Below, piece by piece: positions 36,461 through 59,144 of a stretch of 64,000 nt of DNA. How positions within the stretch are numbered: the first letter of the stretch is position 1; each line of letters begins with the position of its first letter. A program made the position numbers and the translations under genes. Origin of the DNA: Candidatus Roizmanbacteria bacterium GW2011_GWC2_34_23 (GTDB lineage Bacteria > Patescibacteriota > Microgenomatia > UBA1406 > GWC2-37-13); assembly GCA_000990305.1 (NCBI GenBank), contig LBPR01000002.1, positions 8,688 through 72,687 of the forward strand, in the 5' to 3' direction. The notes under the pieces were generated by a model that made no database searches, was not told the DNA's origin, and saw nothing but the letters and a program-made list of their open reading frames with translations.

Positions 36461-36531
36461 TTGGGAGACTTGGATTCGAACCAAGATATTCAGATTCAGA
36501 GTCTGAAATCCTACCATTAGATGATCTCCCA
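36461..36531 (-). tRNA. tRNA-Gln(CUG), CCA not encoded
   Basis: Acceptor TGGGAGA/TCTCCCA, anticodon arm TCAGA-CTCTGAA-TCTGA, T-arm CTTGG-TTCGAAT-CCAAG. Confidence 0.95.
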
Positions 36532-38078: not shown

Positions 38079-38124
38079 AATTAATGGTACACAATATTTA
38101 TTAAAAATCAACAGTAATTAAAAA

Positions 38125-38162
38125 TTACGGTATTGGGAAACGGAGAGCGAGTTTTTTGACTC
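38125..38162 (-). repeat. Duplicate of glyA 3' terminus
   Basis: 37/38 identical to 39003-39040 (VKKLALRFPIP*). Confidence 0.92.
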
Positions 38163-38287
38163 ATAAAATTAATCTTATCATAGAATGAGTCCTTCGATAA
38201 ATAAATACTAATTTGACAATCTAAAACGACAGTTTTGTAGGTTATAAGCGGTTGACAACATATTATGTTTGTTTTATATATTTTTTA

Positions 38288-38641
38288 ATGATAAAAACAC
38301 TAAAATATCAACTTATTTTTTATAAGACCTCATCAGGAAAGGATATAATAGCTGACTTTATTTTAAATTGTGAAAATAATCTTAAAAACAAGATAAGAAC
38401 AGGGATTAAAATTTTTGAAGATTATGGACTTGAATTACTAAAAACTAAATGGTTAAAAAAAATATATCACAATCCAGGTATTTTTGAACTAAGAATTACT
38501 GGAGGAAAACAAATTAGACTTTTATTTATTCAATATAATTCTCAAGTTTTTTTAATTATCCACGCCTTTGTTAAGAAAACCCAAAAAATACCAGGTAAAG
38601 AATTAAAAATTGCTTTAAAAAGAGCCAAAGAATTTATCTAA
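38288..38641 (+). CDS. HigB/RelE-like (Gp49/DUF891-type) toxin
   Basis: IFELRI, IRLLF, HAFVKKTQKIP; start reassigned. Confidence 0.85.
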   Translation: MIKTLKYQLIFYKTSSGKDIIADFILNCENNLKNKIRTGIKIFEDYGLELLKTKWLKKIYHNPGIFELRITGGKQIRLLFIQYNSQVFLIIHAFVKKTQKIPGKELKIALKRAKEFI

Positions 38642-38679
38642 CCCCTTGACAAATATAACTAATTTGTTATAAATAGATT

Positions 38680-38976
38680 ATGAAAAGAAAAATTGATAGT
38701 CTTACCAAATGGTCTGATTTTGAAAAAAAACTTTTAAAAAATAAACAGTTCAGCCGTATCGTCAAAAAGACCGAACATGAATACCAATTGGCTCGAAGTT
38801 TAATCGAATTTCGCTTAAGGAAAAATATAACTCAAAAAGAATTAGCAAAAAGAGCTCATACCAAGCAACCAGTAATATCACGATTAGAAACCGGAACTGT
38901 TAAACCATCAATCTCTCTTCTTGAGCGGATCGCCCTAGCTCTTGACTCTACTCTTGATATTCGTTTTCTTCCCTAA
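38680..38976 (+). CDS. XRE-family HTH antitoxin (HigA-like)
   Basis: ITQKELAKR..QPVISRLETG..PSISLLERIA. Confidence 0.88.
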   Translation: MKRKIDSLTKWSDFEKKLLKNKQFSRIVKKTEHEYQLARSLIEFRLRKNITQKELAKRAHTKQPVISRLETGTVKPSISLLERIALALDSTLDIRFLP

Positions 38977-39002
38977 ATTATTTTGTAAATTATTTCACTA
39001 TT

Positions 39003-40331
39003 TTACGGTATTGGGAAACGGAGAGCGAGCTTTTTGACTCTTAAATGAATTTCCTTCATTTTTTTGTTGGCTCTCATTTCCTTTTCAAACTTAGCAATGT
39101 AATCTTTGCGCTCAAACTTGTTTTCCGGTAAACGATATGGCTTTAATAAATTAATAACTCCCAATATTACGCTACCGATGAACTTCATTTCTTTTTCCTT
39201 CATTCCACGTGATGTGGAGGCCGGTGTTCCAAGTCTGACCCCTGATGGATAAAATGGTGACGATGTCTCATCCGGAACGGTGTTTTTATTTAACGTCAGC
39301 CCAACTAAATCAAGGGCTTTTTGAGTAAATACTCCCGAACCTGCTCCAAGCGCTGAAGTCAAGTTCACAAGTAGTAAATGGTTTTCACTGCCTCCACCAA
39401 CTAATTTTAAACCGCCATCCATCAATGTTTTCGCTAAAACTTTTGAGTTTTTAACAATTTGAGTCGCATATTTTTTAAAAGATGGTTGGGATGCCTCAAA
39501 CAAAGATAAAGCAATACCAGCGGTTGTATTGTCATGCGGTCCTCCCTGAAGTCCTGGAAACACAGCTTTATTTATTTTATCGGCCAAATCAGGATCTTTC
39601 TTCAGACCTTTGTTGGTGACCATGATCATCGCGCCCCTTGGCCCTCTTAAGGTTTTGTGAGTCGTTGTTGTAACAATATGGACATAAGGAACCGGAGACG
39701 GGTGAACTCCTCCGGTAATAAGACCGGCAACATGAGCAATGTCAGCTGCTAAAAAAGCCCCGACTTCGTCGGCAATTTCCGCAAACTTTTTGTAATTAAA
39801 TTTAAGCGGATAAGCAGTCGCTCCTACCCAAATCAATTTTGGTTTATGTTCTTTTGCCAATCTTCTAATCTCTGCATAATCAAATAAATCTTCATTCTTA
39901 TATACATTATCTTTCCTCAATGAATATTGAAAGGGTTTGTAAAATATTCCCGTTGCCGAAACCATATGACCGTGAGTAAGATGTCCTCCGGCAATCAAAG
40001 CCTGCCCCATGATGGCGTCCCCCGGCTTGCAAGTTGCTAAGTAAACGGCCAGATTAGCCGGCGAACCGGAATATGGCTGGACATTGACAAAAGGGACACC
40101 AAAAAGTTTCTTAGCCCTTTCCTGACATAATATTTCCAGCTCATCAACATTTTCATTGCCGCCATAGTAACGCTTTTTTGGATAACCTTCTGAATATTTA
40201 TTAACAAAGTATGAAGACAAAACTTGCCTTACTTCGCTGGAGGCATAATTTTCGGAGGGGATTAGCTCAATTCCTTCTTTCTGCCTTTTTTCTTCCTTTT
40301 TAACCAGATTGTAAACTTTTGTGTCTTTCAT
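39003..40331 (-). CDS. glyA: Serine hydroxymethyltransferase
   Basis: LIPSENY, NKYSEGYP, TTTTHKTLRGPRG, FPGLQGGP; start reassigned. Confidence 0.98.
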   Translation of the reverse strand: MKDTKVYNLVKKEEKRQKEGIELIPSENYASSEVRQVLSSYFVNKYSEGYPKKRYYGGNENVDELEILCQERAKKLFGVPFVNVQPYSGSPANLAVYLATCKPGDAIMGQALIAGGHLTHGHMVSATGIFYKPFQYSLRKDNVYKNEDLFDYAEIRRLAKEHKPKLIWVGATAYPLKFNYKKFAEIADEVGAFLAADIAHVAGLITGGVHPSPVPYVHIVTTTTHKTLRGPRGAMIMVTNKGLKKDPDLADKINKAVFPGLQGGPHDNTTAGIALSLFEASQPSFKKYATQIVKNSKVLAKTLMDGGLKLVGGGSENHLLLVNLTSALGAGSGVFTQKALDLVGLTLNKNTVPDETSSPFYPSGVRLGTPASTSRGMKEKEMKFIGSVILGVINLLKPYRLPENKFERKDYIAKFEKEMRANKKMKEIHLRVKKLALRFPIP

Positions 40332-40400
40332 TTTAGGTAACATGATAAACAAATGATTTTTTTATTTCAAGGGCAAAGAATTAACTACGTGAAGTATAAT

Positions 40401-40468
40401 ATTGTTACATTGTTTAATTGTTTCATTGTTAAATACAACAATCGAGCAATTTAACAATTGAACAATAG
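40401..40468. repeat. Octamer array (ATTGTTNN)n followed by (AACAATNN)n
   Basis: Same family at 45764-45852, 57500-57530 and inside the CCA gene. Confidence 0.7.
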
Positions 40469-40472
40469 ATTT

Positions 40473-40778
40473 ATGTTAAATCTTTTACTCAGTGCTGACG
40501 CTATCATGATTGTCATATTTATTTTCAAGGCCTCTACCATGCCTCCTCAAATTCCTCTATTTTATTCCCAACTGTGGGGTGAGAGTCAATTAGCTGATTC
40601 ATGGTTGATATTTATTTTGCCAATTTTTATGAATATTTTATATATTATTAACCAATATATTTTTAATAAATTTTATTCAGATAATATCTTTGTAAAAAAT
40701 ATTTTTTATTATCTTAATCTTTTCCTTATTGCCAGCTTTACTTTAATCTTTATTAAAATTATTTTTATAGTTTCATAA
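40473..40778 (+). CDS. Small membrane protein (DUF1648-like)
   Basis: PPQIPLFYS..WG motif, three TMs. Confidence 0.6.
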   Translation: MLNLLLSADAIMIVIFIFKASTMPPQIPLFYSQLWGESQLADSWLIFILPIFMNILYIINQYIFNKFYSDNIFVKNIFYYLNLFLIASFTLIFIKIIFIVS

Positions 40779-40779
40779 A

Positions 40780-41835
40780 ATGAATTTTCTTATTTTTTTA
40801 TCGGCTACTTTTATTTCTTATCTTCTGACTATTCCAACGATTACATTAGCAAAGAAATTCCATTTGGTAACCGATTCAAAAACCAGAAATCATCCTGCCC
40901 ATACTCACGTCGGGATTATTCCCCGAGCCGGGGGTCTGCCGATTTATTTATCAATTCTTTTTACATCTCTGATTTTTTTGCCAATCAGTAAAATCATTTT
41001 TGGTATATTAATTGCCAGTTTCTTTTTGATTATTCTTGGATTATTTGATGATGCCTATGACCTTTCTCCTTATTTAAGATTTGTTGCAAATATTCTTATC
41101 TCTGCGCTCGTTATTGCTTTCGGTTTAGGTATCCCTTATATCTCAAATCCTTTTGGGGGAGTGATCAGGCTTGATTTTTGGCAGATACCTCTTAATTTTT
41201 TTGGGGTTCACTATATTTGGGTAGTAGCCGATTTATTAGCCATTATTTGGCTTACTTGGTCGACTAATATGATTAACTGGAGTAAAGGAATTGATGGGCA
41301 ACTACCGGGATTTGTTGCAATTACGGCAATATTCTTAGGACTACTATCAAACCGATTTACCAGTCATGACATTTCGGCGCAATCGGTAACTATTTTGAGT
41401 TTCATTGTTGCCGGAGCATATTTGGGTTTTTTACCTTTTAATTATTATCCTCAAAAGATTATGCCTGGATATGGGGGAGGAGCTTTGGCGGGATTTTTAT
41501 TAGGCATTTTATCGATTTTATCATTTGGAAAAGTAGGAACCGCAATACTTATTTTGTCCATCCCAACTATCGATGCAATATACACAATGATCCGAAGATT
41601 GAAAAAAGGACAGTCCCCTTTCCGGGCCGACTGGGGGCATTTCCATCATCGCCTCATGGAGATAGGTTGGGGAAAAAGACGGATCGCCATGTTTTACTGG
41701 TTGATCTCTTTGATATTGGGAGTAGCTAGTTTATTTTTAAAAGGAATTGAAAAACTCGTCGCTTTTGTTATGATCGGAGTAATGCTTTTGGCCTTCATAT
41801 TTATAATTGAGAAGATGAAGAAACGGAGAATATGA
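40780..41835 (+). CDS. MraY/WecA/TagO-family polyprenyl-phosphate GlcNAc-1-phosphate transferase
   Basis: PRAGG, GLFDD, NW.KGIDG, ADWGHFHHRL. Confidence 0.9.
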   Translation: MNFLIFLSATFISYLLTIPTITLAKKFHLVTDSKTRNHPAHTHVGIIPRAGGLPIYLSILFTSLIFLPISKIIFGILIASFFLIILGLFDDAYDLSPYLRFVANILISALVIAFGLGIPYISNPFGGVIRLDFWQIPLNFFGVHYIWVVADLLAIIWLTWSTNMINWSKGIDGQLPGFVAITAIFLGLLSNRFTSHDISAQSVTILSFIVAGAYLGFLPFNYYPQKIMPGYGGGALAGFLLGILSILSFGKVGTAILILSIPTIDAIYTMIRRLKKGQSPFRADWGHFHHRLMEIGWGKRRIAMFYWLISLILGVASLFLKGIEKLVAFVMIGVMLLAFIFIIEKMKKRRI

Positions 41836-42983
41836 AATATTACATAAAAACCTTTGGCTGTCAACAAAATCATGCTGATTCCGAGCGCATTGAGGCTGAT
41901 TTTAAATCCCGAGGATATACAAAAGCCCACAGTTATAAAAGCGCAAACTACGTCATCATTAATACCTGCATGATTAGACAGTCTGCTGAAAATAGAGTAT
42001 ATGGGTTAGTAGATAATTTAGGAAAAATTAAACAAGCCAAATTAAAAAAGGGTGAGGTTTTTAAAATAATAATTACCGGATGCATGATCGGTATTGTCTA
42101 TCGTGATAAAACCGGCAAGTATTTGAAACTGCTTAAACAAAGAATGGTCAATGCTGATGAATTTATGCCGATCGAAGAGGTGGGCTTTAACCTCCCACCT
42201 GTTCGCACTGATAAAACTAGTGCTTGGGTTCCCATTTCAAATGGTTGTAATAATTTTTGTACCTTCTGTATAGTTCCTTTTACCCGAGGTCGTGAAATTA
42301 GTCGACCATATGAAAACGTAATCTCTGAATGTCTTGAACTTAAAAAAAGGGGGTACAAAAACGTAATGTTATTGGGACAAAATGTTAACTCTTATGGGGC
42401 TGATTTAATTGTTGGTGAGAAAAAAATTAAAAATTTAAGCCCCATCTATGTCAAACATTTAGGTCGTTATCGAATCCCTACACTGTTTCCTCACCTCCTT
42501 GATGAAGTAGCTCAGATGGGTTTCGAAAAGGTAGAATTTATGTCCAGTAACCCGTGGGATTTTTCCGATGAATTGATCGATGTTATAGCTAAAAATAAAA
42601 ACATCAGCCGGTCACTGCATCTACCAGTTCAATCAGGTGATGATGCCGTCTTAAAAAGAATGAATCGGTGGTACACCAGCGACGAGTACCTCGTCTTAAT
42701 ATCAAAAATCAAAGCTCAAATACCAAATATAAAATTCACAACAGATATAATCGTAGGGTTTTGTGGGGAAACAGATGAAGAATTTCAAAATACGGTCGCT
42801 CTTTGTAAAAAAGTCGGATTTAGCTGGGCTTATGTCTCAATGTACTCTCCCCGATTTAACACTGCCGCTACTAAGGTATTTAAAGATGATGTTCCCCACA
42901 CTGTCAAAAAAAAGCGTTGGCTTATCCTTGAAAACTTAATCAATCAACCACGACTGAAATTAAACCGAAGCTCTTTGAAGTAA
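41832..42983 (+). CDS. miaB: MiaB-like radical SAM methylthiotransferase (no TRAM domain)
   Basis: TFGCQQN, INTC, GCNNFCTFCIVPFTRG, HLPVQSG. Confidence 0.85.
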   Translation: MKYYIKTFGCQQNHADSERIEADFKSRGYTKAHSYKSANYVIINTCMIRQSAENRVYGLVDNLGKIKQAKLKKGEVFKIIITGCMIGIVYRDKTGKYLKLLKQRMVNADEFMPIEEVGFNLPPVRTDKTSAWVPISNGCNNFCTFCIVPFTRGREISRPYENVISECLELKKRGYKNVMLLGQNVNSYGADLIVGEKKIKNLSPIYVKHLGRYRIPTLFPHLLDEVAQMGFEKVEFMSSNPWDFSDELIDVIAKNKNISRSLHLPVQSGDDAVLKRMNRWYTSDEYLVLISKIKAQIPNIKFTTDIIVGFCGETDEEFQNTVALCKKVGFSWAYVSMYSPRFNTAATKVFKDDVPHTVKKKRWLILENLINQPRLKLNRSSLK

Positions 42984-43307
42984 TTTCTCTATATTATTTT
43001 TGAAGGTTGGTAAATCTTCTTTGATTGTATCCCAAACAATATTTAAATCTACACCAAAATACTCATGAATAATAAAATTTCTCATTCCAATCACTTTTTC
43101 CCATTCAACATTTGGATTTGATTCAATAAAATTTTCATCCAAGTTGTTTGCTGCTTCTCCAATGACTTGAAAACTTCGAAGTACTGCGTCATGAGTTTTT
43201 TTATCAAAAATAAAATCTTCCACTGAAGAAGTATCTTTTATGTAGTCTTCTATGTCCTTAACCGCTTCTAAAATATGACTAAGCAATAACGAATTATCTT
43301 TTTTCAT
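42960..43307 (-). CDS. HEPN (DUF86/HepT-like) RNase toxin
   Basis: VIGEAA, MRNFIIHEYF (RX4HXY). Confidence 0.9.
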   Translation of the reverse strand: MKKDNSLLLSHILEAVKDIEDYIKDTSSVEDFIFDKKTHDAVLRSFQVIGEAANNLDENFIESNPNVEWEKVIGMRNFIIHEYFGVDLNIVWDTIKEDLPTFKNNIEKLLQRASV

Positions 43308-43585
43308 ATTTGATAAATGACCTTTTCATCTTTTAGAATTTTATCTTTAAGCATCGGATTGATACTTCCATAAGTTACGACGTCTACTGATTTTTTTAAA
43401 CTATCTTGAAGATCAATCTGCATTCCAGCCATATCAAATAAAGTGGTTCCATTAGCTGGTTCTATAAGAATATCTATATCACTTTTTTCATTATTATCCC
43501 CTCGAGCGTAAGATCCAAAAAGAGCTGCTTTTTTTACCTTGTAACCTTGGAGAATATTAATAATATTATCTATATCTTGCTTCAT
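43304..43585 (-). CDS. Minimal nucleotidyltransferase (MntA-like) antitoxin
   Basis: FGSYARG..SDIDIL (GSX10DXD); start reassigned. Confidence 0.9.
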   Translation of the reverse strand: MKQDIDNIINILQGYKVKKAALFGSYARGDNNEKSDIDILIEPANGTTLFDMAGMQIDLQDSLKKSVDVVTYGSINPMLKDKILKDEKVIYQI

Positions 43586-43634
43586 ATATGACATTATATC
43601 ACGTAATAAAAAATCGTTGTCAATTCAAAAAACA

Positions 43635-43727
43635 GATGTCCCTCACACAGTAAAAAATAAACGCTGCTTAGTTCTGGAAAATTTAATAAATAAACCACAG
43701 TTAAAAAGATCCAAATCTACGAATTAA
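43635..43727 (+). pseudogene. Orphan second C-terminus of miaB
   Basis: DVPHTVKNKRCLVLENLINKPQLKRSKSTN* versus DVPHTVKKKRWLILENLINQPRLK at 42888-42959. Confidence 0.88.
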
Positions 43728-43737
43728 TCTAATAAAG

Positions 43738-43850
43738 CATTTATCATTTTAAATTTTTCATTTATCATTGATTTTTCATTTGATTATTTATTAATTAAAA
43801 AATAAAAAATTAAATTTCATTAAAAAATGAGAAATGAAAATTGAAAATTA
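43738..43850. repeat. Degenerate heptamer array with inverted halves
   Basis: CATTTNT units followed by AAAATNA units. Confidence 0.5.
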
Positions 43851-43911
43851 TTCTAATTATTTATATAAATATCTTAACAGATTAGCATCATTCTTGTGTT
43901 AAAATTAACTA

Positions 43912-44889
43912 ATGAAACTACTTGTGACCGGTGGAGCTGGATTTATTGGAAGCAACTTCATTCTTTATTGGTTAAAAAAATATCCACAGGATAAAATTGT
44001 TAATTTGGACAAATTAACATACGCTGGCAATCTTGAAAATCTAAGATCCATTGAAAAAAACCCTAACTATGAATTTGTGCAAGGTGACATCTGTAACCCT
44101 CAACTAGTTAATTCTCTAACAGAGAAAACCGATGTAATAGTTCACTTCGCTGCTGAATCACACGTTGATCGGTCCATTATGGATCCGGCTCCATTTATCA
44201 AAACAAATATTGAAGGTACTTATGTTTTACTTGAAGCCGCTTTAATAAACAAAGTAAAAAGATTTCATCATGTTTCAACAGATGAAGTTTTCGGAGCTCT
44301 TGAATTAGGATCAAGTGAAAAATTTAATGATTTAACTCCGTATAATCCCCACAGCCCATATTCTGCTTCAAAAGCTTCCTCAGACCATTTGGTCCGTGCT
44401 TATTTTGATACCTATAAACTTCCTATGACGATATCCAACTGTTCAAACAATTTTGGTCCCTACCAATTTCCGGAAAAATTAATTCCTTTGGCGATCACGA
44501 ATTTGATCGAGGGGAAAAAAGTGCCTGTTTATGGCGATGGGCTCTATGTTCGTGACTGGCTTTATGTCGAAGATCATTGCCGGGCGATTGATTTGGTTTT
44601 GCAAAAAGGAAAAATTGGAGAAACTTATTTAATTGGCGGATTAACTGAAGATATTGCCAATATAGATATTATTAAGAACATTTTAAAGATTATGGGAAAA
44701 GATGAAACACAAATCGAATTTGTCAAAGACCGACCCGGTCATGATCGTCGGTATGCTATCGATTGGTCAAAAATTAATAAAGAATTAGGCTGGAAACCCG
44801 AGCATAGTTTTGATGAATATCTAAAGATAACAGTAGATTGGTATATTAGTAACAGAAAATGGTGGGAACGAATTAAAAAAACAGTTTAA
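43912..44889 (+). CDS. rfbB: dTDP-glucose 4,6-dehydratase
   Basis: TGGAGFIGSN, HFAAESHVDRS, STDEV, YSASK, DRPGHDRRY. Confidence 0.96.
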   Translation: MKLLVTGGAGFIGSNFILYWLKKYPQDKIVNLDKLTYAGNLENLRSIEKNPNYEFVQGDICNPQLVNSLTEKTDVIVHFAAESHVDRSIMDPAPFIKTNIEGTYVLLEAALINKVKRFHHVSTDEVFGALELGSSEKFNDLTPYNPHSPYSASKASSDHLVRAYFDTYKLPMTISNCSNNFGPYQFPEKLIPLAITNLIEGKKVPVYGDGLYVRDWLYVEDHCRAIDLVLQKGKIGETYLIGGLTEDIANIDIIKNILKIMGKDETQIEFVKDRPGHDRRYAIDWSKINKELGWKPEHSFDEYLKITVDWYISNRKWWERIKKTV

Positions 44890-45746
44890 TGCTTATGCTA
44901 AAAATCGCTCTTACAGGGGCTGATGGCTTAGTTGGCTCAAGAATTGTTGAACTTCTTAAAGATGATTTTGAATTTATTCCGTTACCCCAAAAGTTGATGG
45001 ACATTACCAATAAGGAACACGTTGATAATGCCTTGAAAAATTTAGATTTTAATATCTTTTTCCATCTAGCCGCTTTCACTAATGTCCCGGGGGCAGAAAC
45101 TAACAAAGAGCTTTGCTTTAAGATCAATCGTGATGGAACTAAAAACGTGTATGAGGCGGTCAAGCAAAAACAAAAAAAGTTTATTTATGTTTCAACTGAC
45201 TTCGTTTTTGATGGTATTAGTCCTCCTTATAATGAAGATTCCCTTCCAAATCCGATAGGAGTTTATGCTTTATCAAAATACGAAGGTGAAAAAATTGTTA
45301 ATCCGCCAGCTGGCGGACAGGCGATGATTGTTAGAATCGCATACCCGTATCGGACCAGTTTTGAATTAAAAAAAGATTTTTTTAGAACTTTTAAATTTTA
45401 TTTAGAAAATAATAAGCCTTTATCGATGATTACCGACTCTCTCATGACGCCGACCTTTATTGATGATATTGCTTATGGGTTGAAGTATTTATTTAATAAT
45501 TATAAACCTGAAATATATCATCTCGTGGGAAGCCAATCAATATCACCTTATGATGCAGCTATGAAAGTGGCAGAAACTTTTAATCTTGATAAATCTTTAA
45601 TTGGAAAAACCACTTATGAAGAATACATTTTAGGCAAAGCCCGATTACCCCAGTTTGCAACTATTAAAAGCAATAAGAATAATTTTTGGAAAATGAAAAC
45701 ATTCGGGGAAGGATTAGATGTAATAAAAAAACAAATATCTAAGTAA
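44889..45746 (+). CDS. rfbD: dTDP-4-dehydrorhamnose reductase-like
   Basis: TGADGLVG, HLAAFTNV, STDFVFDG, YALSK. Confidence 0.88.
   Translation: MLMLKIALTGADGLVGSRIVELLKDDFEFIPLPQKLMDITNKEHVDNALKNLDFNIFFHLAAFTNVPGAETNKELCFKINRDGTKNVYEAVKQKQKKFIYVSTDFVFDGISPPYNEDSLPNPIGVYALSKYEGEKIVNPPAGGQAMIVRIAYPYRTSFELKKDFFRTFKFYLENNKPLSMITDSLMTPTFIDDIAYGLKYLFNNYKPEIYHLVGSQSISPYDAAMKVAETFNLDKSLIGKTTYEEYILGKARLPQFATIKSNKNNFWKMKTFGEGLDVIKKQISK
45302..45317. repeat. TCCGCCAGCTGGCGGA palindrome, in frame in rfbD
   Basis: Perfect 16-bp GC-rich palindrome encoding PPAGG. Confidence 0.75.
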
Positions 45747-45763
45747 CTTTGATATATCTTTTA

Positions 45764-45852
45764 TATTGCTCTATTGTTTAATTGTTACATTGTTAAAAAA
45801 CAACAACCTGCCTGCCGGCAGGCAGGTCGAACAATGAAGCAATGAAACAATG
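45764..45852. repeat. Octamer array with nested CCTGCCTGCCGGCAGGCAGG (45807-45826)
   Basis: Intergenic between rfbD and ugd. Confidence 0.88.
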
Positions 45853-45891
45853 TTGCCTTTATTACAGCATTTTTGTATCATTTAATTTCAT

Positions 45892-47187: not shown

Positions 47188-47285
47188 ATCTTAAATAATA
47201 AATCCCAAATCACAAATAAATCCTAAAAGGTTTTAAATTTAAAATTTAAAAATTATTTGGAACTTGGAATTTAGTATTTAGAATT
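47188..47285. repeat. Degenerate heptamer array with inverted halves
   Basis: AAATCCC/AAATCAC units then GAATTT/GTATTT units; similar to 61081-61178. Confidence 0.6.
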
Positions 47286-47289
47286 TTTT

Positions 47290-48228: not shown

Positions 48229-48232
48229 AAAT

Positions 48233-49375: not shown

Positions 49376-49382
49376 CAATTAT

Positions 49383-49495
49383 ATAAGTTACGAAGTGCGG
49401 ATTTTTTCTCGATCACTTGTGCCCCAAAATATCTTCTATACCACCTAACTTATTTCACATTGAGCGAGAACTAAAAGACGCATTTCGTAACTTAT
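49383..49495. mobile_element. 113-bp element with 17-bp terminal inverted repeats (MITE-like)
   Basis: ATAAGTTACGAAGTGCG / CGCATTTCGTAACTTAT (16/17) plus inner inverted repeat. Confidence 0.45.
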
Positions 49496-49501
49496 TGGTA
49501 A

Positions 49502-50395: not shown

Positions 50396-50426
50396 GATTA
50401 CATTCTAGGCGAGTTTAATAAACATT

Positions 50427-51296: not shown

Positions 51297-51318
51297 ATTT
51301 TTATGTACAGTTAATTAA

Positions 51319-52002
51319 TTAACTAGTCATTATAATTTTTTGATCAAATTCTTCTAAAGATTTTATTTGATAATCAGGCTTAATATTTTTTGGAAGTACA
51401 GAATGTTTTGAAGGAACCAATAAAATTTTTAAGCCTGCTTCATATGCTGCCACAACTCCATTTTCTGTATCTTCAATAACTAGGCACTCATTTTTACTGA
51501 ATTGTCCAAAATTATCATTTAGATATTTGAATGCCATTTCATAGCATTCTGAGTTTGGCTTGCTTTGCTGAACTTGATCCCCTGAAATAATGAAGTCGAT
51601 ATACTGTCTCAAATTAAACTGATTTAGAATTAAGTCAATATATTTCTTAGACCCTGATGAAACTATGGCAACAATTTCATTCATTTCTTTTAATTTTTTT
51701 ACTAAATAAATTGCGCCAGGATATATAGTCATTTCTTTTTTTACTAAATTAAGAAAAATGTTTTCTCTTATTTTTATCAATTCTGTTGCCGGAAGTTCTT
51801 TTTCAGAAATATTAGAACAATCTCTTTTTATTATTAAAATATCTGATACTCTTCTACCAATGAAATCAATGTCTTTAACTTTTTTTTGAATTGAATTGTA
51901 GTCGTAACCAAATTTTTCAAAAGCCAACTGATTTGCTTTTAAATGCAGTGGCAAAGAATCAACAAGAGTGTCATCTAAATCAAAAAAAATCGCCTTGATC
52001 AT
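51319..52002 (-). CDS. HAD-family phosphatase
   Basis: FDLDDTLVDS, SKP, IEDTENG. Confidence 0.9.
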   Translation of the reverse strand: MIKAIFFDLDDTLVDSLPLHLKANQLAFEKFGYDYNSIQKKVKDIDFIGRRVSDILIIKRDCSNISEKELPATELIKIRENIFLNLVKKEMTIYPGAIYLVKKLKEMNEIVAIVSSGSKKYIDLILNQFNLRQYIDFIISGDQVQQSKPNSECYEMAFKYLNDNFGQFSKNECLVIEDTENGVVAAYEAGLKILLVPSKHSVLPKNIKPDYQIKSLEEFDQKIIMTS

Positions 52003-52099
52003 TAATTAATAATATCAAATTTGGTCATTTATCTGCTATCATATAAAATGCCACTTCGCTATTAAAAATGGCATTCTGATAGCTTCGAGGCATAAACCA

Positions 52100-53797
52100 A
52101 TGATTAAAGACGAAATATTAAAAAACTTGGCTGAAGCTTTAGAGAAAATCAACGTCAAAGATGTCGTGCTTACTTTAGAAAAACCGGCTAATACTGATTT
52201 TGGTGATTATTCATCCTCCTTGCCTCTGAAACTAACCAAACAACTAAAGAAAAATCCTATGACAATTTCCGAGGAAATAGTTAAGAACTTTCCAAAGAAC
52301 GATTCTATAAAAAAGATTGAAATTGTTAAGCCGGGTTTTATTAACTTTTGGATTGCTGACGTACAGTTGATTAATCGATTGACAGAAGTTGTTGAAAAAA
52401 ATTTTATTTATCCAGAATATTATTTTGGAAAAAATAAAAAATTAATGATTGAGTTTGCCCACCCCAACACGCATAAGCTTTTTCATATTGGCCACTTAAG
52501 AAATATTTCAACGGGCGAAACATTGGTAAGAATACTTGAAGCAGTTGGCAATAAAGTAATTAGATCAAATTATGAGGGGGACGTCGGGCTTCATATTGCT
52601 AAATGCTTGTATGGTATAAAAAATTCAGAATTCATAATTCAGAATTCAGAATCTTTACAAAAGAAAATCGAATTTATAGGAAAGATGTATAGTACGGGAA
52701 CTAAAGCTTATGAAGATGATCCAAAAGCTAAAGAAGAAATATTAAAAATCAATAAGATGATTTACGAAAAAGACCCTAAGATTATGCCACTTTGGACTGA
52801 AACTCGTGCATGGAGTCTTGAATATTTTGAAGAAAATTACAAAAGATTTTACAGCCATTTTGATCGATATTATTTTGAAAGTGAATTTTACAAACGTGGT
52901 GTAGAAATTGTTAAACAATCTTTGAAAAAAGGTATTTTCGAAAAAAGCCAGGGGGCGATCATTTTTAATGGCAAAAAATATGGGCTGGACACTCGAGTTT
53001 TTATCAACTCACTTGGCTTTCCTACTTATGAAGGAAAAGAATTGGCACTGGCCGAAAAAGAATTTTCTGATTTTGGAGAACTAGATAAAATCATCCATAC
53101 TGTGACACCTGAACAGACTAGTTTTTTTAAGGTCACTTTTAAAGTTGAGGAATTAATTGACGAAAAAAAATATAAAAATAAACAGTACCACCTTGCTTAT
53201 GAATGGGTAAAATTAAAGGCCGGAAAAATGTCCTCTCGGGAAGGTAATGTCATTGAAGCCAATTGGTTGATCGATGAAGTTAAGAAAAAAATTTCTGAAA
53301 AATTTAATTGTGATGAAGAAACAACGGAAATTCTTGCTGTTGCTTCTGTTAAATATTCTTTCTTAAAAAATGGCACCCAAACGATTATCCATTTTGATAT
53401 TGACGAATCAATCGCCGTCGATGGCAACTCCGCTCCTTACTTGATTTACACTTATGTTCGATGTCAATCAGTTTTAAATAAAGTAAAACATAACTCACAA
53501 AACTCTCTAAACTCGTTAAACTCTTTAATAATTAATACCGATGAATCAAACGTTTTACGACTAATTAACCAATTCCCCGAAATTGTTGAACAAGCGGCTA
53601 TTCAACTTGCTCCTAATTTAATCGCCAACTATCTCTATGATCTAGCCCAAAAATATAATTATTTTTATCAGAAAAATAAGATCCTGGAATCAGAAGAAAC
53701 AACCAAACAATTTAGACTGATGTTAACCCAAGCAACGGGAAAAGTGATTAAAGAAGGACTATATTTGCTGGGAATTAAGACTGTTGAAAAGATGTGA
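52100..53797 (+). CDS. argS: Arginine--tRNA ligase
   Basis: FGDYS, PGFINF, HPN..FHIGHLRN, KMSSREG, YTYVRC. Confidence 0.97.
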   Translation: MIKDEILKNLAEALEKINVKDVVLTLEKPANTDFGDYSSSLPLKLTKQLKKNPMTISEEIVKNFPKNDSIKKIEIVKPGFINFWIADVQLINRLTEVVEKNFIYPEYYFGKNKKLMIEFAHPNTHKLFHIGHLRNISTGETLVRILEAVGNKVIRSNYEGDVGLHIAKCLYGIKNSEFIIQNSESLQKKIEFIGKMYSTGTKAYEDDPKAKEEILKINKMIYEKDPKIMPLWTETRAWSLEYFEENYKRFYSHFDRYYFESEFYKRGVEIVKQSLKKGIFEKSQGAIIFNGKKYGLDTRVFINSLGFPTYEGKELALAEKEFSDFGELDKIIHTVTPEQTSFFKVTFKVEELIDEKKYKNKQYHLAYEWVKLKAGKMSSREGNVIEANWLIDEVKKKISEKFNCDEETTEILAVASVKYSFLKNGTQTIIHFDIDESIAVDGNSAPYLIYTYVRCQSVLNKVKHNSQNSLNSLNSLIINTDESNVLRLINQFPEIVEQAAIQLAPNLIANYLYDLAQKYNYFYQKNKILESEETTKQFRLMLTQATGKVIKEGLYLLGIKTVEKM

Positions 53798-53810
53798 TTG
53801 AACTATTTAC

Positions 53811-53880
53811 TATTACGAGTTTAGAGAGTTTGCGAGTTTATGTTTTAAACTCGTCAACTCGTTAACCCGTTAAATAAATT
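53811..53880. repeat. About 70-bp (GAGTT)n/(AACTC)n inverted array
   Basis: Near-identical to 56423-56494; inverted copy at 61684-61758. Confidence 0.85.
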
Positions 53881-53889
53881 AATAAATCA

Positions 53890-55179
53890 ATGTCATTTTT
53901 TATTTGTTCTGAATGTGGCTTTGGTTCCGGTTCTTGGATTGGCAAGTGTCCCGACTGTGGGAAATGGAATACACTGAAAGAAAAGCCCGAATTTGCCAAA
54001 AATTCTTCAAGTAAGAAGGGCGAAACCGTTAAAAAAATTACCATCACTTCCCTATCAAAAGTAAAAAGCTCAACTAAGTCAAGGCTCTCAACCGGCATAT
54101 TTGAATTTGATCGGGTATTGGGTGGTGGAGTCGTTCCAGGTGAGGTAATTTTGCTTACTGGTCAACCAGGAATTGGAAAATCAACACTCGTTCTTCAAGC
54201 TTTTCAAAAACTTAAAGTGCTTTATATCTCCGGCGAAGAATCGGCTGAACAGGTAAAAAATCGGGCCGAAAGACTTTCTGTTGACCTTGATAATCTTTCA
54301 TTTTCTGCAGATCTACAGATAGAAAGTATCATTCAAAGCTTAGAAGAATTAAAAGATGAAATTGAAATTATTATTATTGATTCTGTCCAAACCATCTATT
54401 CAAAAGATATTGGAGGACCGGTCGCCGGTGTCAGTCAGCTAAAAGAAGTGACTAAAAAAATTATTAATTTTGCCAAACAATCTAAATTGTCCGTTTTGTT
54501 AATCGGTCATATTAACAAAGAAGGCGATGTGGCCGGACCAAAAACGTTGGAACATTTTGTCGACTGTGTACTAGAACTCGAAGGTGAAAAAGTTTCTAAC
54601 TTTAGGTTACTCCGTGCTTCAAAAAACAGATTTGGTTCGACTGACGAAATTGGAATTTTTGAAATGAAACAAAAGGGACTTAGTGAAGTTAAGAACCCAT
54701 TAGTTTTCTTAGAAACTGATAAAAAATTGGAGCCGGGAAAAGCCATTGTTGGCGTAGCGGAGGGAAAACGACCTTTCTTTTTTGAAATTCAAACATTGGT
54801 TGTTCCCACCAGTTTTATGAATCCGCGTCGGGTCGTTAAAGGCTTGGACTATAACAAAGTTCTATTATTATTGGCAGTTATTAGAAAAAATTTAAATCTC
54901 CCTCTTGACCGTTTTGATGTTTTTGTTAACGTCGTCGGCGGCGTCTCGATCAAATCAACCGGAGCTGATCTTGGCTTTATTGCTTCATTAATTTCATCAT
55001 TCAAAAATATTGCCCTACCAGCCAATTCTCTCTTTGTTGGCGAAGTTGGGTTACTTGGTGAAATTCGACCAACCCACATGGAAGAAAAAATTATCGAAGA
55101 GTCAAAGCGTCTAGGATTTAAAAAAATTTATTCTTCAAAGTTAATAAATAATGTAAAAGAATTTGCAAAGAAATTATAG
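53890..55179 (+). CDS. radA: DNA repair protein RadA/Sms
   Basis: C4 zinc finger, GQPGIGKST, KNRFG. Confidence 0.96.
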   Translation: MSFFICSECGFGSGSWIGKCPDCGKWNTLKEKPEFAKNSSSKKGETVKKITITSLSKVKSSTKSRLSTGIFEFDRVLGGGVVPGEVILLTGQPGIGKSTLVLQAFQKLKVLYISGEESAEQVKNRAERLSVDLDNLSFSADLQIESIIQSLEELKDEIEIIIIDSVQTIYSKDIGGPVAGVSQLKEVTKKIINFAKQSKLSVLLIGHINKEGDVAGPKTLEHFVDCVLELEGEKVSNFRLLRASKNRFGSTDEIGIFEMKQKGLSEVKNPLVFLETDKKLEPGKAIVGVAEGKRPFFFEIQTLVVPTSFMNPRRVVKGLDYNKVLLLLAVIRKNLNLPLDRFDVFVNVVGGVSIKSTGADLGFIASLISSFKNIALPANSLFVGEVGLLGEIRPTHMEEKIIEESKRLGFKKIYSSKLINNVKEFAKKL

Positions 55180-55180
55180 T

Positions 55181-55207
55181 CTGGATTCCCGCCTCCGCGG
55201 GAATGAC
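55181..55207. repeat. dRS3-like ATTCCC-N8-GGGAAT hairpin between convergent genes
   Basis: CTGGATTCCCGCCTCCGCGGGAATGAC. Confidence 0.7.
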
Positions 55208-55208
55208 A

Positions 55209-55835
55209 TCATGGCGCCTTCTTAAAGAAAGTTTTTTCCACAATAGTTTTTTTTCCGTTGGCTCCAATAAGATTTATTATTAATTTGTTTTCTCCTTCAT
55301 TGAGCGAATATTCATAGGTGAATACCCCTTCTTTATTTTGATAAATTCTTTCCCCAGAAATTGTGACACTCGTATCTTTCTCAGTTTTTCCAGTAATTTT
55401 TATATTTTTTTCCACAGAAAAATTTGTTTTTGTTGGGGATAATAAAGTAAAACTTGGCGGAGAAAAGTAGGTTTTTAACTGAAAAACAAAATATAAAATA
55501 AAAAACAAAGTTAAAATTATTAAACCAAACTTTAATAACTTTTTTGTTCCCGAAGTTAAATAAGCGCTCGTTACTTTTCTTTTAAATCTTATTTCTTCCT
55601 TTTTTTCATAATCACGTCTAAAAAATGCCAGAACTTTTTTATGATCAAGATTCAAGACACGGGAATAGTTCTTGAGAATCCCTGTTATATAAATTTTAGA
55701 AGAAAAATAATTCCAATTTTCATCTTCAATTGCTTTTAAGTATTTTTCCCTTACCTTTATTTGCTTTTCAATATCAATTAGAAGTAAACCTTTTTTTTCC
55801 CTTTCATTTTTAAGAATTGTACCAACGGATAACAT
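55209..55835 (-). CDS. RodZ-like HTH membrane protein
   Basis: VGTILKNER..YLKAIE..YITGILKNY, TM, C-terminal beta domain; start reassigned. Confidence 0.75.
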   Translation of the reverse strand: MLSVGTILKNEREKKGLLLIDIEKQIKVREKYLKAIEDENWNYFSSKIYITGILKNYSRVLNLDHKKVLAFFRRDYEKKEEIRFKRKVTSAYLTSGTKKLLKFGLIILTLFFILYFVFQLKTYFSPPSFTLLSPTKTNFSVEKNIKITGKTEKDTSVTISGERIYQNKEGVFTYEYSLNEGENKLIINLIGANGKKTIVEKTFFKKAP

Positions 55836-55842
55836 AGCTTTA

Positions 55843-56403
55843 TTATACTCTTCCAGTATACTCTCCTGTCTCCGGATTAATACTGATTGTTTCCCCAACT
55901 TTGACAAATATTGGAACCATAACTGTGGCACCAGTTTCGACTTTAACGGGTTTTTTAGCCCCGGAAACCGTATCGCCTTTAGCCGCGTCATCTGCCTCAA
56001 CTATTTTTAGTCTAACACTCATCGGTGGACGAATTGTTAATGGTTTATCGTTATACATATAGACGAACATCTTCTCTCCCTCTTTAAAAAATCTGGAAAT
56101 ATCTCCAACAACAGAAATTGGGAGAGCCGACTGATTAAACGTTCTCTCATCCATAAAATATAGATTTTCCTGATCTTTATAAATATATTGCATATCAACT
56201 GAAGTGACGTCCAATACTTCTACTTGCTCATTGGATTTATAAGCATATTCAACGTTTTTAGCAGTAATAAGATTTTTTAATCTCGCTTTCATTAAGGCTG
56301 ATCCTTTTCCTGGTGAATAGAAGTCAGCTTTTTGAACTTGACAAATTGCACCTTGAAAAGTAACAAACTCCCCTTTTTTTAGATTACCGGCATTTATTCG
56401 CAT
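55843..56403 (-). CDS. efp: Elongation factor P
   Basis: SPGKGSA, KGDT, VPIFV. Confidence 0.96.
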   Translation of the reverse strand: MRINAGNLKKGEFVTFQGAICQVQKADFYSPGKGSALMKARLKNLITAKNVEYAYKSNEQVEVLDVTSVDMQYIYKDQENLYFMDERTFNQSALPISVVGDISRFFKEGEKMFVYMYNDKPLTIRPPMSVRLKIVEADDAAKGDTVSGAKKPVKVETGATVMVPIFVKVGETISINPETGEYTGRV

Positions 56404-56422
56404 ATTTAATTTTTATATTATT

Positions 56423-56494
56423 TATTACGAGTTTAGAGAGTTTAGCGAGTTTGTATTTTAAACTCGTCAACTCGTTAAGCTCGCTAAATAAATT
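56423..56494. repeat. (GAGTT)n/(AACTC)n inverted array
   Basis: Copy of 53811-53880. Confidence 0.85.
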
Positions 56495-57473
56495 AATCTA
56501 TAATATTTATAAGTTTTAGTTTATCAATAGAAGTCACATTTGCAAATATCATTACCAATCTTTCGAACCCAATTCCCGCTCCTGTGCAAAAAGGCAAACC
56601 ATATTTTAATGCTTTAATGAAGCTTTTGTCAATCGTATGATCAATCATTTTATTTTTTTTTCGCTTTTCTGATTCAGAAATAAATCTCTTTTCCTGCTCA
56701 TTATAATCATTCAATTCTGTACAAAAACCTCCGATCTCAAGACCATTTATATAGAACTCACATCTTTGAGCGGTTCGACCATCTTCGTTCAATTTAGCCA
56801 AAGAAGCCATTTGTTTTGGATAATTATAAAGTAAGGTCGGGTAACCACTAATTCCTAACTTTGGCTCTATTTCGGTTGCTAATATCTGGGAAAACAGATC
56901 TTCATAGGTGGTTTTTTCGATGTTGTATCCTTTTTCTTTTGCTTTGTTAAAAAACAATTTCTCGTCAAATAATTCTTCTTCATTTATTTTTGTAAATTTT
57001 AAGAATGCTTGAGCCACCGACATTTTTTCCCATTTTTTAAATGATATTTTTAATTTTTTATTTTCTATTTTGATATATTGAAGTAATTTCAGCACTTCAT
57101 CGGCCATTTCTAAATAATCTATACCTAATTTATAAAATTCTAGCATGGTGAATTCTGGACTGTGCCAATCAGAATTTGGCTCGCTATTTCTATAAGCCCG
57201 ACCGAGATAATAACAATTACCAACTCCAGTGACCAACAATCTTTTCAAGAATATTTCTGGCGAAGGTGTCAAATAAAGTTTTTCCTTTTTATCAAGATAA
57301 TTAAACTTGGTTTCAAAAATTTCAAGATAAGATTCAGGAATAAGTGCCGGAGACAAAACCGGTAGATCAACTTTAAGATAATTATTTTTATTCATAAATT
57401 CATGGACAGTTCGCTCGACCTGGAGATAGATTTTGTAGTTGTTTAAGTTCTTAATAGTTGTTTGTATTTTCAT
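56493..57473 (-). CDS. epmA: EF-P lysine aminoacylase (EpmA/GenX-like)
   Basis: LTPSPE, YRNSE..HSPEFTMLEFY, GAGIGFERL; no anticodon domain; adjacent to efp. Confidence 0.88.
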   Translation of the reverse strand: MKIQTTIKNLNNYKIYLQVERTVHEFMNKNNYLKVDLPVLSPALIPESYLEIFETKFNYLDKKEKLYLTPSPEIFLKRLLVTGVGNCYYLGRAYRNSEPNSDWHSPEFTMLEFYKLGIDYLEMADEVLKLLQYIKIENKKLKISFKKWEKMSVAQAFLKFTKINEEELFDEKLFFNKAKEKGYNIEKTTYEDLFSQILATEIEPKLGISGYPTLLYNYPKQMASLAKLNEDGRTAQRCEFYINGLEIGGFCTELNDYNEQEKRFISESEKRKKNKMIDHTIDKSFIKALKYGLPFCTGAGIGFERLVMIFANVTSIDKLKLINIID

Positions 57474-57538
57474 GTTGAAATTATACATTAGAAAAATATA
57501 TTGTTTCATTGTTCCATGGTTTCATTGTTTTCAATTTT

Positions 57539-57564
57539 GTAGGGGCTTGATTTATCAAGCCCTA
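57539..57564 (+). repeat. GTAG-type REP-like palindrome (family B variant)
   Basis: GTAG-GGGCTTGAT-TT-ATCAAGCCC. Confidence 0.8.
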
Positions 57565-57606
57565 AACATAAATCAAAAGCCTTGTGTCAGGTGATATAAT
57601 TTTTAA

Positions 57607-57835
57607 ATGGCAAGAGGGCAGTTTGAATCCAGGAGCAGTGAAATTAGAGAAGTAAAAGCTGAAGAAAATATTACTTCAAAGAGGGGTATTGCTAAGCATA
57701 TGCACAACATATTAAGAGTGATACTTAAAGATGGGTAATTATTTTAAAAAGGGAATTAAAATTGATTTGACACCTAAAGCTAAGAAAAATAGAGAAAAAG
57801 CAGCCGATGATTTGAAAAAAAAATATGATCTATAA
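57607..57835 (+). pseudogene. Probable degraded orphan ORF
   Basis: TGATATAAT-6 nt-ATG, 43 codons then stops, Lys-rich open continuation to about 57835. Confidence 0.3.
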
Positions 57836-57863
57836 TAATTTCAGTAATTTTTTCAAAACAAAA

Positions 57864-57901
57864 TCAAATCTCTTCCTCCAACTCCTTTAATAGTTCTTTT
57901 G
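57864..57901 (-). pseudogene. Orphan second 3' terminus of dnaJ
   Basis: 32/38 nt to 58287-58324; KELLKELEEEI* versus [11 protein letters not shown]. Confidence 0.88.
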
Positions 57902-57911
57902 ATGAATATTT

Positions 57912-58037
57912 TGGAACGATGAATCGTTCCACTACAGTTAATGATAATTCCTAATCTAAAAAAATAGTAGAGGTGCAATTTATTGCACAAAAAATCAGCA
58001 TTATTTAAAAATTCGTAGTGATTTGATTTATCAAACC
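57912..58037. repeat. Cluster of three GTAG-type REP-like palindromes
   Basis: 57912-57935 (minus, GTAG-TGGAACGAT-TC-ATCGTTCCA), 57967-57988, 58015-58037. Confidence 0.7.
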
Positions 58038-58066
58038 TTAATAATTTATATTTAAAGCATTATGCC

Positions 58067-58095
58067 TTGACAAGAAGAATAACTGAGTGTAGAAT
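58067..58095 (+). promoter_or_regulatory. Sigma70-type promoter
   Basis: TTGACA-17 nt-TAGAAT. Confidence 0.65.
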
Positions 58096-58106
58096 CTTAA
58101 AAACTT

Positions 58107-58286
58107 ATGACGACGCTAGGCTCTTTACCAAAAAAAATAAAAAATCCAGAAGGATTTGTTACACTTCCTGGTTCTGTATTTACTGCATTAGCTTTTGTTA
58201 ATAGTGGAAGAGTAAAGATCACTGAAGAATTAGCTAAAATATTAAAAAAAATGAAAGAGGGACGTATAAAAAATGAAAAAGAGTAA
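58107..58286 (+). CDS. Small hypothetical protein (59 aa), stop abuts the dnaJ stop
   Basis: MTTLGSLPKKIKNPEGFVTLPGSVFTALAFVNSGRVKITEELAKILKKMKEGRIKNEKE, own promoter. Confidence 0.55.
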   Translation: MTTLGSLPKKIKNPEGFVTLPGSVFTALAFVNSGRVKITEELAKILKKMKEGRIKNEKE

Positions 58287-59144
58287 TCAAATCTCTTCTT
58301 CCAACTCCCTCAACAACTCTTTTGCCCTTGAAGAAACTCGGGACGGGGTATTGATTTTGTAGACGACGTACTGATCGCCTTTGCGGTTTGATTGCGGATA
58401 AGGAACTCCTTGATCGTGAAGTTTGACAGTTGTCCCCGACTGCGTCCCCGATCTTATTTTTAACTTAATCGTCCCATTAACAGTTGGAACTTCGACCACT
58501 CCGCCAAGAACTGCTAAAGAATAAGAAATTTCTTTTTCAAAATATATATCCTGACCTTTTCTGGTGAAATAAGGATGCGATTTAACTTTCACCTGCAAAT
58601 CAAAATCGGAAAATCTGATTGTCATATTGTCATCAACTCCTGCTGGGATCTGAAAAGATTTTTCTTCACCTTTGACAATCATAGTTTTCTTAACACCGTT
58701 AACGGCTTCTTCAAAAGTCAAAGTGATTTCATAAACATCACGTCTTTGCTGGCGTCTTCCCCCCCGGGAAAACGGTGATTGAAAGCCGAAAAATTGTTCA
58801 AAAATTTCAAAAGGATCGGAAAATCCCCCAAAATCAACATTCTCAAATCCCTGAGTTGAAAAGCCTCCAAAGCCTCCAAATGGATTTGACTGATCTGATT
58901 GTCCAGCACTCGAGTGACCTGGACCTCCTCGATTGAAAGCGCTTTCTCCATACTGGTCATACATTTCTCGCTTTTTTGAATCAGAAAGAACTTCGTAGGC
59001 TTTTGTAACATCTTTAAATTTACCAGAAGCTTCTGTTGTTTTATTTCTGTCCGGATGCCACTTAAGAGCCTGACGACGATAGGCCGTTTTTATTTCCGCA
59101 TCAGATGCACCCTTTGAAACACCGAGAGTTTCGTAATAATCCAT
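58287..59144 (-). CDS. dnaJ: DnaJ chaperone (class B, no zinc finger)
   Basis: J domain with HPD, G/F-rich region, C-terminal domain. Confidence 0.93.

Follow-up and report, generated by a model that had tools for sequence, protein, structure and literature searches.

Stranded gene ends beside integrase-free cargo genes in a Roizmanbacteria genome

Insertion with long target duplication, for which Nobusato et al. (2000) is reportedly the reference, has the same layout as the one we describe here in a 64,000-nucleotide stretch (the window) of Candidatus Roizmanbacteria bacterium GW2011_GWC2_34_23, an ultrasmall groundwater bacterium (contig LBPR01000002.1, positions 8,688 to 72,687). In the window, small cargo genes lie between an intact glyA, miaB or dnaJ gene and a stranded second copy (remnant) of the end of that gene. 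In insertions with long target duplication, a small insert without mobile-element genes is bounded by a variable direct repeat of more than 30 bp that often spans a start or stop codon, the gene stays intact, and most carriers are naturally competent species (PMC2853133). The inserts are shorter than 20 kb, the class was defined for restriction-modification genes, the repeats match at 44/46 to 47/47 positions in the rows seen, and the duplication was ascribed to double-strand breaks, a mechanism still hypothetical in that survey (Furuta, Abe & Kobayashi 2010, PMC2853133). The sites described here are alike in their repeats of more than 30 bp (9 of 10 sites), in a single-copy empty allele and in inserts below 20 kb without an integrase. 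They differ in that the cargo is toxin-antitoxin, regulatory or orphan, without restriction-modification genes, and in that the repeats are diverged alleles (71-96% identity), nearly all from 3' ends, with one cassette traced across species.

Homology-facilitated illegitimate recombination (HFIR), described in competent bacteria, is RecA-dependent, uses 3-10 bp of microhomology and produced insertion-deletions of ~1 kb in the laboratory (PMC3240628). Our sites share with it one homologous anchor (glyA in the relatives G008 and G002, the break in dnaJ) and a second, variable joint with little homology (glyA, guaA), but the products that survive here would have kept nearly all of the resident DNA, with a gene tail left over. 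In Vibrio type VI secretion system (T6SS) effector-immunity arrays and in Rhs loci, a new module displaces a 3' end, events stack and HFIR has been proposed (PMC5361080). A displaced 3' end downstream and stacking recur here; there, however, what is exchanged is a functional toxin domain within a single locus family, whereas here interchangeable housekeeping tails at many unrelated loci are joined to unrelated cargo. The e14 element likewise provides icd with a fresh 3' end, while the previous end persists as the diverged pseudogene icdC, but it is a 15-kb prophage with a fixed att site, whereas our sites have no integrase and variable joints (PMC13626634). Neisseria minimal mobile elements also place variable small gene content, exchanged by homologous recombination, between conserved genes, but they need two conserved flanking genes, whereas here one gene end suffices for both arms (PMC3787668).

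An original prediction, made from the letters of the window, had offered HFIR or an undescribed mobility route as explanations. To call the route undescribed claims too much novelty, the layout having been reported before (PMC2853133). New here are the evidence on donor and recipient, the reuse of a cassette by several species and the marked preference for 3' ends. A search of titles and abstract openings, which reached few subscription papers and no supplements, listed no prior account of remnant-driven spread or of the layout in Patescibacteria.

Cargo genes between two alleles of one gene end

The genome containing the window, here G000, is a 708-kb, 80%-complete metagenome-assembled genome (MAG). 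All three layouts of the original prediction (glyA with a HigB-XRE pair, miaB with an MNT-HEPN pair, dnaJ with a 59-aa orphan) are present where it had placed them, and repeats and Pfam matches agree (Table 1). The junctions were checked with Logan contigs, not raw reads, from another sample of the possible source study (X4) and from other studies (X6 and X7). The glyA junction is bridged by contigs X4 (38048-38555) and X6 (37878-38503) and the miaB junction by contigs X4 (43427-43981) and X7 (42970-44092), all with 0 differences, and the entire dnaJ cassette is spanned by contigs X4 (57789-58560, 0 differences) and X6 (57504-58360, 2 differences). In a low-depth X7 contig, which is suggestive only, the dnaJ cargo follows another dnaJ allele, one with 10 differences. 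The three junctions are real. Chimeric assembly of two strains could be suspected in an 80%-complete MAG with more remnants than its relatives; it is refuted by the independent contigs across all three junctions, related junctions occur in other species' assemblies, and we give it practically no weight.

The last 120 nt of each gene were compared with the 3 kb downstream, in whole-genome scans that covered G000 and the relatives G009 and G022. Ten tail-remnant sites were found in G000 (597 gene tails scanned), four with toxin-antitoxin modules as cargo. Cargo spans measure 286-2037 nt, the aligned repeat is 31-121 nt long at nine sites and 25 nt at one, and in cargo-free relatives the copied sequence is single (one gene end only). 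None of the cargoes scanned matched restriction-modification Pfam families. In a masked DNA scan, 8 of the 597 tails had a stop-anchored downstream copy; outside these eight are miaB, whose copy is not stop-anchored, and thiN, which was masked by a spurious open reading frame (ORF) and found in other scans. The controls gave 0/588 anchored copies for tails against upstream DNA, 0/597 for mid-gene pieces and 2/597 for another gene's downstream DNA, both of the last being perfect 25-nt matches that we read as self-hits. A translated scan gave 7/597 against 0/588 and 0/597 in its controls. The tail copies thus exceed chance. Paralogue and repeat matches had been dropped ahead of counting; three others were also dropped, L113 (inside surA), L426 (low complexity) and L440 (a 120-nt perfect repeat in a distant genome).

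In G009 (915 kb), 7 of 784 genes matched, 6 of them stop-anchored (one of the six likely transposon-made), and in G022 (1,007 kb) a tail copy followed none of 851 genes; since the counts differ between the three genomes, remnant load is lineage-dependent. Across the genus, with at least 600 nt of downstream sequence required, mostly 1.5-kb flanks and a few genomes counted twice, remnants were present at glyA in 1/24 loci, miaB in 1/30, dnaJ in 2/29, purC in 3/17, acs in 2/23, guaA in 2/22 (that of G000 lying beyond the flank), thiN in 1/17 and the VanW gene in 1/27. A 27-nt glyA tail copy also follows a small two-gene cargo in Gottesmanbacteria (L393:4314-5100), at one locus among 72 scored.

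Across the ten G000 sites, where the two copies are 71-96% identical, there are 71.5 synonymous differences at 127 sites (proportion pS 0.56) against 41.5 non-synonymous differences at 464 sites (pN 0.09), giving a pN/pS of 0.16, and 72 of the 113 differences fall at codon position 3. The remnants begin 27-131 nt ahead of the stop, in all three codon phases. Because the differences are mostly synonymous, both copies diverged as coding sequence and represent two alleles, as the original prediction had proposed.

Comparison with cargo-free relatives shows that at six sites, namely glyA, miaB, thiN, guaA, purM and a gene on contig C8, it is the remnant that represents the resident gene end. The miaB remnant scores 138 against the tail of the cargo-free G016, the intact tail 45. 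Its translation is DVPHTVKNKRCLVLENLINKPQLKRSKSTN* against DVPHTVKKKRWLILENLINQPRLKLNRSSLK* for the intact tail; the copies are 75% identical across 64 aligned nt and then have differing C-termini, and the intact C-terminus LKLNRSSLK* was absent from every relative's locus read. At glyA, the remnant is 95% identical to the intact last 43 nt, and the flank following the remnant beats that following the intact copy in 8/8 cargo-free relatives. The surA-like gene that follows this remnant lies directly 3' of glyA in G009, G001, G006, G019, G004, G054, G046 and G048. Cargo-free relatives are also better matched by the remnant tail and flank at thiN (2/2) and by the post-remnant flank at guaA (2/2). 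The remnant and flank of the C8 gene match G022, as does the last codon of the purM remnant, and the purC and purM remnants have between them the same 18-nt overlap that joins the two convergent genes, intact, in G022 and G056. The expectation that cargo-free relatives carry the remnant tail or flank therefore holds at miaB and glyA; it does not decide dnaJ, acs, the VanW gene or the purC tail letters. At dnaJ, G000 and G048 share 97-100% identity between 180 and 60 nt ahead of the stop and 68% over the last 60 nt, the last ~57 nt departing from an allele otherwise common to G048 and G009.

Variable joints and reuse of cassettes across species

The HigBA pair lies 3' of glyA in G000, G008 and G002 with three different right ends. 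Its flank continues into the start codon of another gene in G008 and it joins the surA spacer in G002, in both cases without a remnant and with the cargo continuing a donor-type gene end, so that one side carries a homologous anchor. The G000 sequence agrees with the G008-type flank as far as TTTATGA and from there runs on as glyA tail, which itself reads TTTAAGA at this place; these initial 7 nt of the remnant are the junction and, on the donor-type G008, show 6/7-base microhomology, 2 nt of it perfect. The in-frame stop of the remnant does not come from decay; it is due to a junction letter from the donor side. At guaA, the AbiE pair shows three joints (G000, G018 and G002), and MNT-HEPN near miaB has two, that in G046 differing and lacking a remnant. 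The same cargo with different inner joints excludes a fixed att site. Intervals with conserved flanks and variable content comprise glyA-surA, miaB-rfbB, dnaJ-epmA and guaA-aminotransferase.

The purC cargo occurs in five species (G000, G001, G002, G009 and G048). It is 94.6% identical between G009 and G048 and 90.6% between G000 and G002, against 79.8% and 79.0% for core genes; the G001 copy is more distant (~75%). Its carriers are scattered on a concatenated core tree, itself blurred by mosaicism. The cargo-remnant junction region is common to all five carriers, with a short deletion in G009 and G048, whereas the remnant ends differently: NLSSYL* before the purM remnant in G000, NLKKYF* in G009, ILEKYF* in G002, and NLNSY* in G001, where a Fic gene and a second stacked remnant follow, on a contig separate from purC. 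Only ~20 nt of the remnant are left in G048. One junction is common to the acs cassettes of G000 and G002, whose neighbours differ, each matching a different cargo-free relative, so that in both the purC and the acs cassettes the junction is kept while the downstream neighbour changes. At guaA, cassettes occur in both orders, G018 having AbiE, a remnant and then the sequence that lies directly 3' of the intact guaA in G000. On these alignments, the purC cassette is shared horizontally between species, and the start of its remnant travels with the cargo, the end and neighbour of the remnant change, and remnants stack.

Apart from the cassettes, the core genes at 39003-40352, 41832-42983 and 58287-59144 are mosaics, with 60-200-nt patches 95-100% identical to different species on a background of ~80%. 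On either side of the TrpR-like cargo at acs (L091, G000:C3:28140-28977) stands a directly repeated palindromic motif, which may be the operator of this cargo.

How the cassettes may arise and spread

An HFIR-like founding event, with its anchor in the gene and an illegitimate joint in the resident tail, followed by remnant-aided spread through double crossover, is the account that we hold, with some reservation, to be probable. DNA taken up from a related species, consisting of the 3' part of a gene and its cargo, would recombine by homology inside the gene, and the far end of the cargo would be joined illegitimately within the resident gene's tail. The donor tail would complete the gene, leaving the resident tail in front of its old neighbour; joints between genes would leave no remnant, a state seen where other species carry these cargoes. 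Where genomes are compact, most of the room for a joint that spares both genes may lie in the tail. Gene, cargo and remnant would then offer homology to one gene end on both sides. Because both arms are homologous to one gene end, a double crossover can place the cargo behind any relative's allele, whatever its neighbour; each new recipient would supply the remnant end and the neighbour, and the remnant start would come with the cargo. Uptake by transformation, a linear substrate, the enzymes at work and the order of events are inferred. The proposal that a donor tail arrives with the cargo and replaces the resident tail is supported by the six resident-remnant sites and the variable joints, and HFIR is the best-supported candidate for founding.

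Natural competence has been shown in Saccharibacteria (PMC10633639; for competence see also PMC12455944), and since these are transformable, the finding is directly testable. Intact comEC-type, MBL and comEA-like ORFs are present in G000, comEC in 4/5 genomes (gene presence only) and dprA in 4/4 near-complete relatives. MutS_V was found in none of the four near-complete relatives; a 1,176-aa ORF (G000:C15:1702-5229) holds both G000 matches to it.

Several observations weigh against this account. dprA was not found in G000 (80% complete), and in the laboratory HFIR runs at 10^2-10^6 below homologous recombination (PMC3240628). The microhomology anticipated at the inner joints was seen at one junction only, that of glyA, whose proxy donor is 85% identical; at the G002 guaA joint, where it had once been noted, it was not borne out (a 1-nt overlap), and miaB and the remaining joints have no close donor to compare. 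Tail identity alone does not separate resident from donor at glyA, dnaJ, acs, purC, guaA and vanW, and at the VanW gene 5/8 cargo-free relatives match the intact copy better. The acs copies share an identical last 48 nt and those of G009 purC 73 nt at 95%, near-identical tracts that require later conversion or a close donor. The placeable left crossovers lie close to the stop (~27 nt at purC in G000 and G002, ~57 nt at dnaJ), which also fits a circle.

HFIR also predicts head remnants, whereas G000 and G009 together have 16 tail copies and at most 1 head copy. A detection effect behind this bias was rejected, as across 355 and 344 orthologue pairs heads scored much like tails. Head-type remnants were sought as well; the 14 translated head-upstream matches in G000 compare with 15 head-downstream ones and are mostly paralogue starts, and a candidate on contig C1 was rejected as a repeated upstream element. 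A strict replication-strand bias was rejected too, glyA/miaB and purC/purM being oppositely oriented at distances of a few kb. A tail that stays silent may cost less than a head fragment that is translated and brings a foreign promoter. The one head candidate, on contig C16 with a HicAB cargo, is ambiguous because of a full-length paralogue upstream in G009. The copy concerned (L097, G000:C16:15742-15946 vs 16559-16763), 205 nt of promoter and gene start at 91% identity upstream of HicAB, may be a head-type remnant or a truncated paralogue.

The spreading step could alternatively pass through a circle: tail and remnant would recombine to excise the cargo with one tail, the circle would enter another cell, where a single crossover in the gene end would rebuild the layout, and a broken donor fragment would have given rise to the first such circle. 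This would account equally well for the short left arms, and in purC the shared donor-type sequence starts within the duplicated span, only ~27 nt upstream of the stop. In E. coli, recircularised DNA gave duplications of 109-950 bp by single crossover (PMC3240628), and excision between short direct repeats without a recombinase has been reported (PMC5426353). We nevertheless consider it unlikely, as the divergent dnaJ tract, extending ~18 nt upstream of the remnant start, does not fit a single crossover inside the repeat, provided that G048 stands fairly for the recipient, these cargoes also occur without a remnant, and there were no excised-circle or empty-site joints at these repeats among the matches listed for the four runs (contigs only). 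More improbable is that transposases of the Y1/HUH type, associated with repetitive extragenic palindromes (REPs), acted in trans, cutting donor single strands beside REP-like hairpins and so making the seemingly illegitimate joint. The cargo at the C8 gene, the exception to a transposase-free cargo, is itself a Y1_Tnp gene, the distance from a REP-like hairpin to the junction is 10 nt at dnaJ and 0-20 nt at purM, and Y1_Tnp matches number 6/5/9 in the remnant-bearing G000/G009/G002 vs 2/2 in G022/G008, which in five related genomes is not a test. Most of the 16 folded junctions, however, lack a strong hairpin, only dnaJ and two purM sites reaching -9 kcal/mol or below, and the glyA joint falls at the start codon of the donor's next gene.

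The 3' end of guaA is a known island target, and the sites might be the attL and attR of gene-end-replacing elements, like e14 at icd, that have since lost their integrase. Such decayed islands would have the geometry and 3' polarity of icd/icdC (PMC13626634), and serine recombinase genes lie elsewhere in 4/5 genomes. We rate this a shade lower still: ten different genes are targeted within 0.7 Mb, Pfam reveals no integrase-like ORF in the cargo spans of 0.3-2.0 kb, the five relatives tested, including the remnant-free G022, have no tyrosine recombinases beyond a 313-aa and a 289-aa gene, and the three joints of one cargo at glyA and at guaA largely refute it. The G000 tyrosine recombinase (PF00589, 313 aa), common to all five, and its one gene with a serine-recombinase domain (PF07508), at a contig end, are not near any site, and Pfam scans found no integrase-like ORF in or beside the cargoes. 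The claim that no integrase or transposase is visible at the three loci thus stands, and no integrase with matching att cores was found near the sites. The statement that no terminal repeats are visible needs a correction, a REP-like hairpin at 57912-57935 having been overlooked. Both decayed islands and Y1-transposase help may apply at single sites. A true target-site duplication, by transposase or DNA break and with both copies from the recipient, fits one site in G009, a perfect 46-nt repeat around a 438-aa HTH_29 ORF (L260, G009:C1:23842-25328). This ORF, which resembles an insertion sequence transposase, has repeated ends, and the flanking duplication is a gene end. For the G000 sites as a group such duplication is refuted by copies only 71-96% identical with a strong synonymous bias and by the different C-termini at miaB, so that we think it very improbable.

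Compared side by side, the donor-type, recipient-type and carrier alleles favour replacement of one allele by another over duplication of the target. The sites suggest a possible route for toxin-antitoxin modules and small genes between streamlined genomes poor in mobile elements, and a tail copy within 3 kb is a simple genome-wide signature of recent acquisition. As a tentative proposal, which we put at somewhat less than even, the stranded tail would make any passenger gene a self-targeting mobile cassette: transformation alone would move a cassette across ~20% divergence independently of synteny, cassettes would stack and change order over repeated rounds as in an integron without integrase, this could be a main route of toxin-antitoxin and defence genes in Patescibacteria, and the 3' bias would be set by recombination.

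Features of the three loci and neighbouring observations

Table 1 Features of the three loci in the window and cargo at the other G000 sites
Feature	Coordinates	Strand	Remarks
surA-like gene	37410..38111	-	PF13624; ancestral neighbour on the 3' side of glyA
glyA tail remnant, resident end	38125..38167	-	direct repeat; post-remnant flank matches cargo-free relatives
HigB-like Gp49 toxin, cargo	38252..38641	+	PF05973, E 3e-13
HigA-like HTH_3 (XRE) antitoxin, cargo	38680..38976	+	PF01381, E 2e-13; also at glyA in G008 and G002
glyA (serine hydroxymethyltransferase), intact	39003..40352	-	PF00464, E 8e-145; final 43 nt (39003-39045) present twice
miaB-type radical SAM gene, intact	41832..42983	+	PF04055 and PF00919; last 96 nt duplicated
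HEPN (HepT-like) toxin, cargo	42960..43307	-	PF01934, E 2e-29; 24-nt overlap with miaB stop
MNT antitoxin, cargo	43304..43594	-	PF18765, E 2e-18
miaB tail remnant, resident end (...QLKRSKSTN*)	43635..43727	+	matches intact tail of cargo-free G016
rfbB-like dTDP-sugar dehydratase	43912..44889	+	PF16363; common downstream neighbour of miaB, 3' of miaB in many relatives
epmA-like class II aminoacyl-tRNA synthetase paralogue	56493..57509	-	PF00152; usual downstream neighbour of dnaJ in most relatives
dnaJ tail remnant	57864..57901	-	last 38 nt repeated, 84% identity; related junction in G005
GTAG-type REP-like hairpin	57912..57935	-	10 nt from dnaJ junction
59-aa orphan cargo ORF at dnaJ	58107..58286	+	no Pfam match
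dnaJ, intact	58287..59144	-	PF00226 and PF01556
acs			TrpR-like cargo
purC			322-aa SQS_PSY-like cargo, below Pfam cut-off
purM			three cargo ORFs, each without Pfam match or outside scan
thiN			86-aa orphan cargo
VanW-domain gene			AbiEii pair as cargo
guaA			Phd-PIN and AbiE pair as cargo
125-aa unknown gene (C8 gene)			Y1_Tnp cargo

The HigB-like toxin likely starts at the ATG at 38288; the TTG at 38252 belongs to a -35-like TTGACA, and the G002 homologue begins MIKT. Upstream of the MNT antitoxin are TTGACA (43623-43618) and TATAAT (43598-43593) with a spacing of 19 nt, and the 59-aa orphan ORF is preceded by a promoter-like TTGACA-17-TAGAAT at 58067-58095. In relatives, miaB varies by an internal insertion of ~20-40 aa, G000 having the short form.

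In G005, the hairpin seen beside the dnaJ remnant stands ahead of a gene that is not in G000, and a similar dnaJ junction follows. This G005 ORF is putatively like a REP-associated tyrosine transposase (RAYT). Positions 57510-57861, which separate the dnaJ remnant from the epmA-like gene, hold ~350 nt of apparently decayed DNA and a second GTAG-type REP-like hairpin (57539-57562); the high depth here in other runs hints at a repeat of wide occurrence. Short degenerate tandem-repeat families occupy spacers at 40399-40439, 45763-45803, 57498-57532, 53829-53873 and 56427-56478, and an ORF with a LAGLIDADG domain (PF14528, 36547-37323) adjoins tRNA-Gln (36460-36531).

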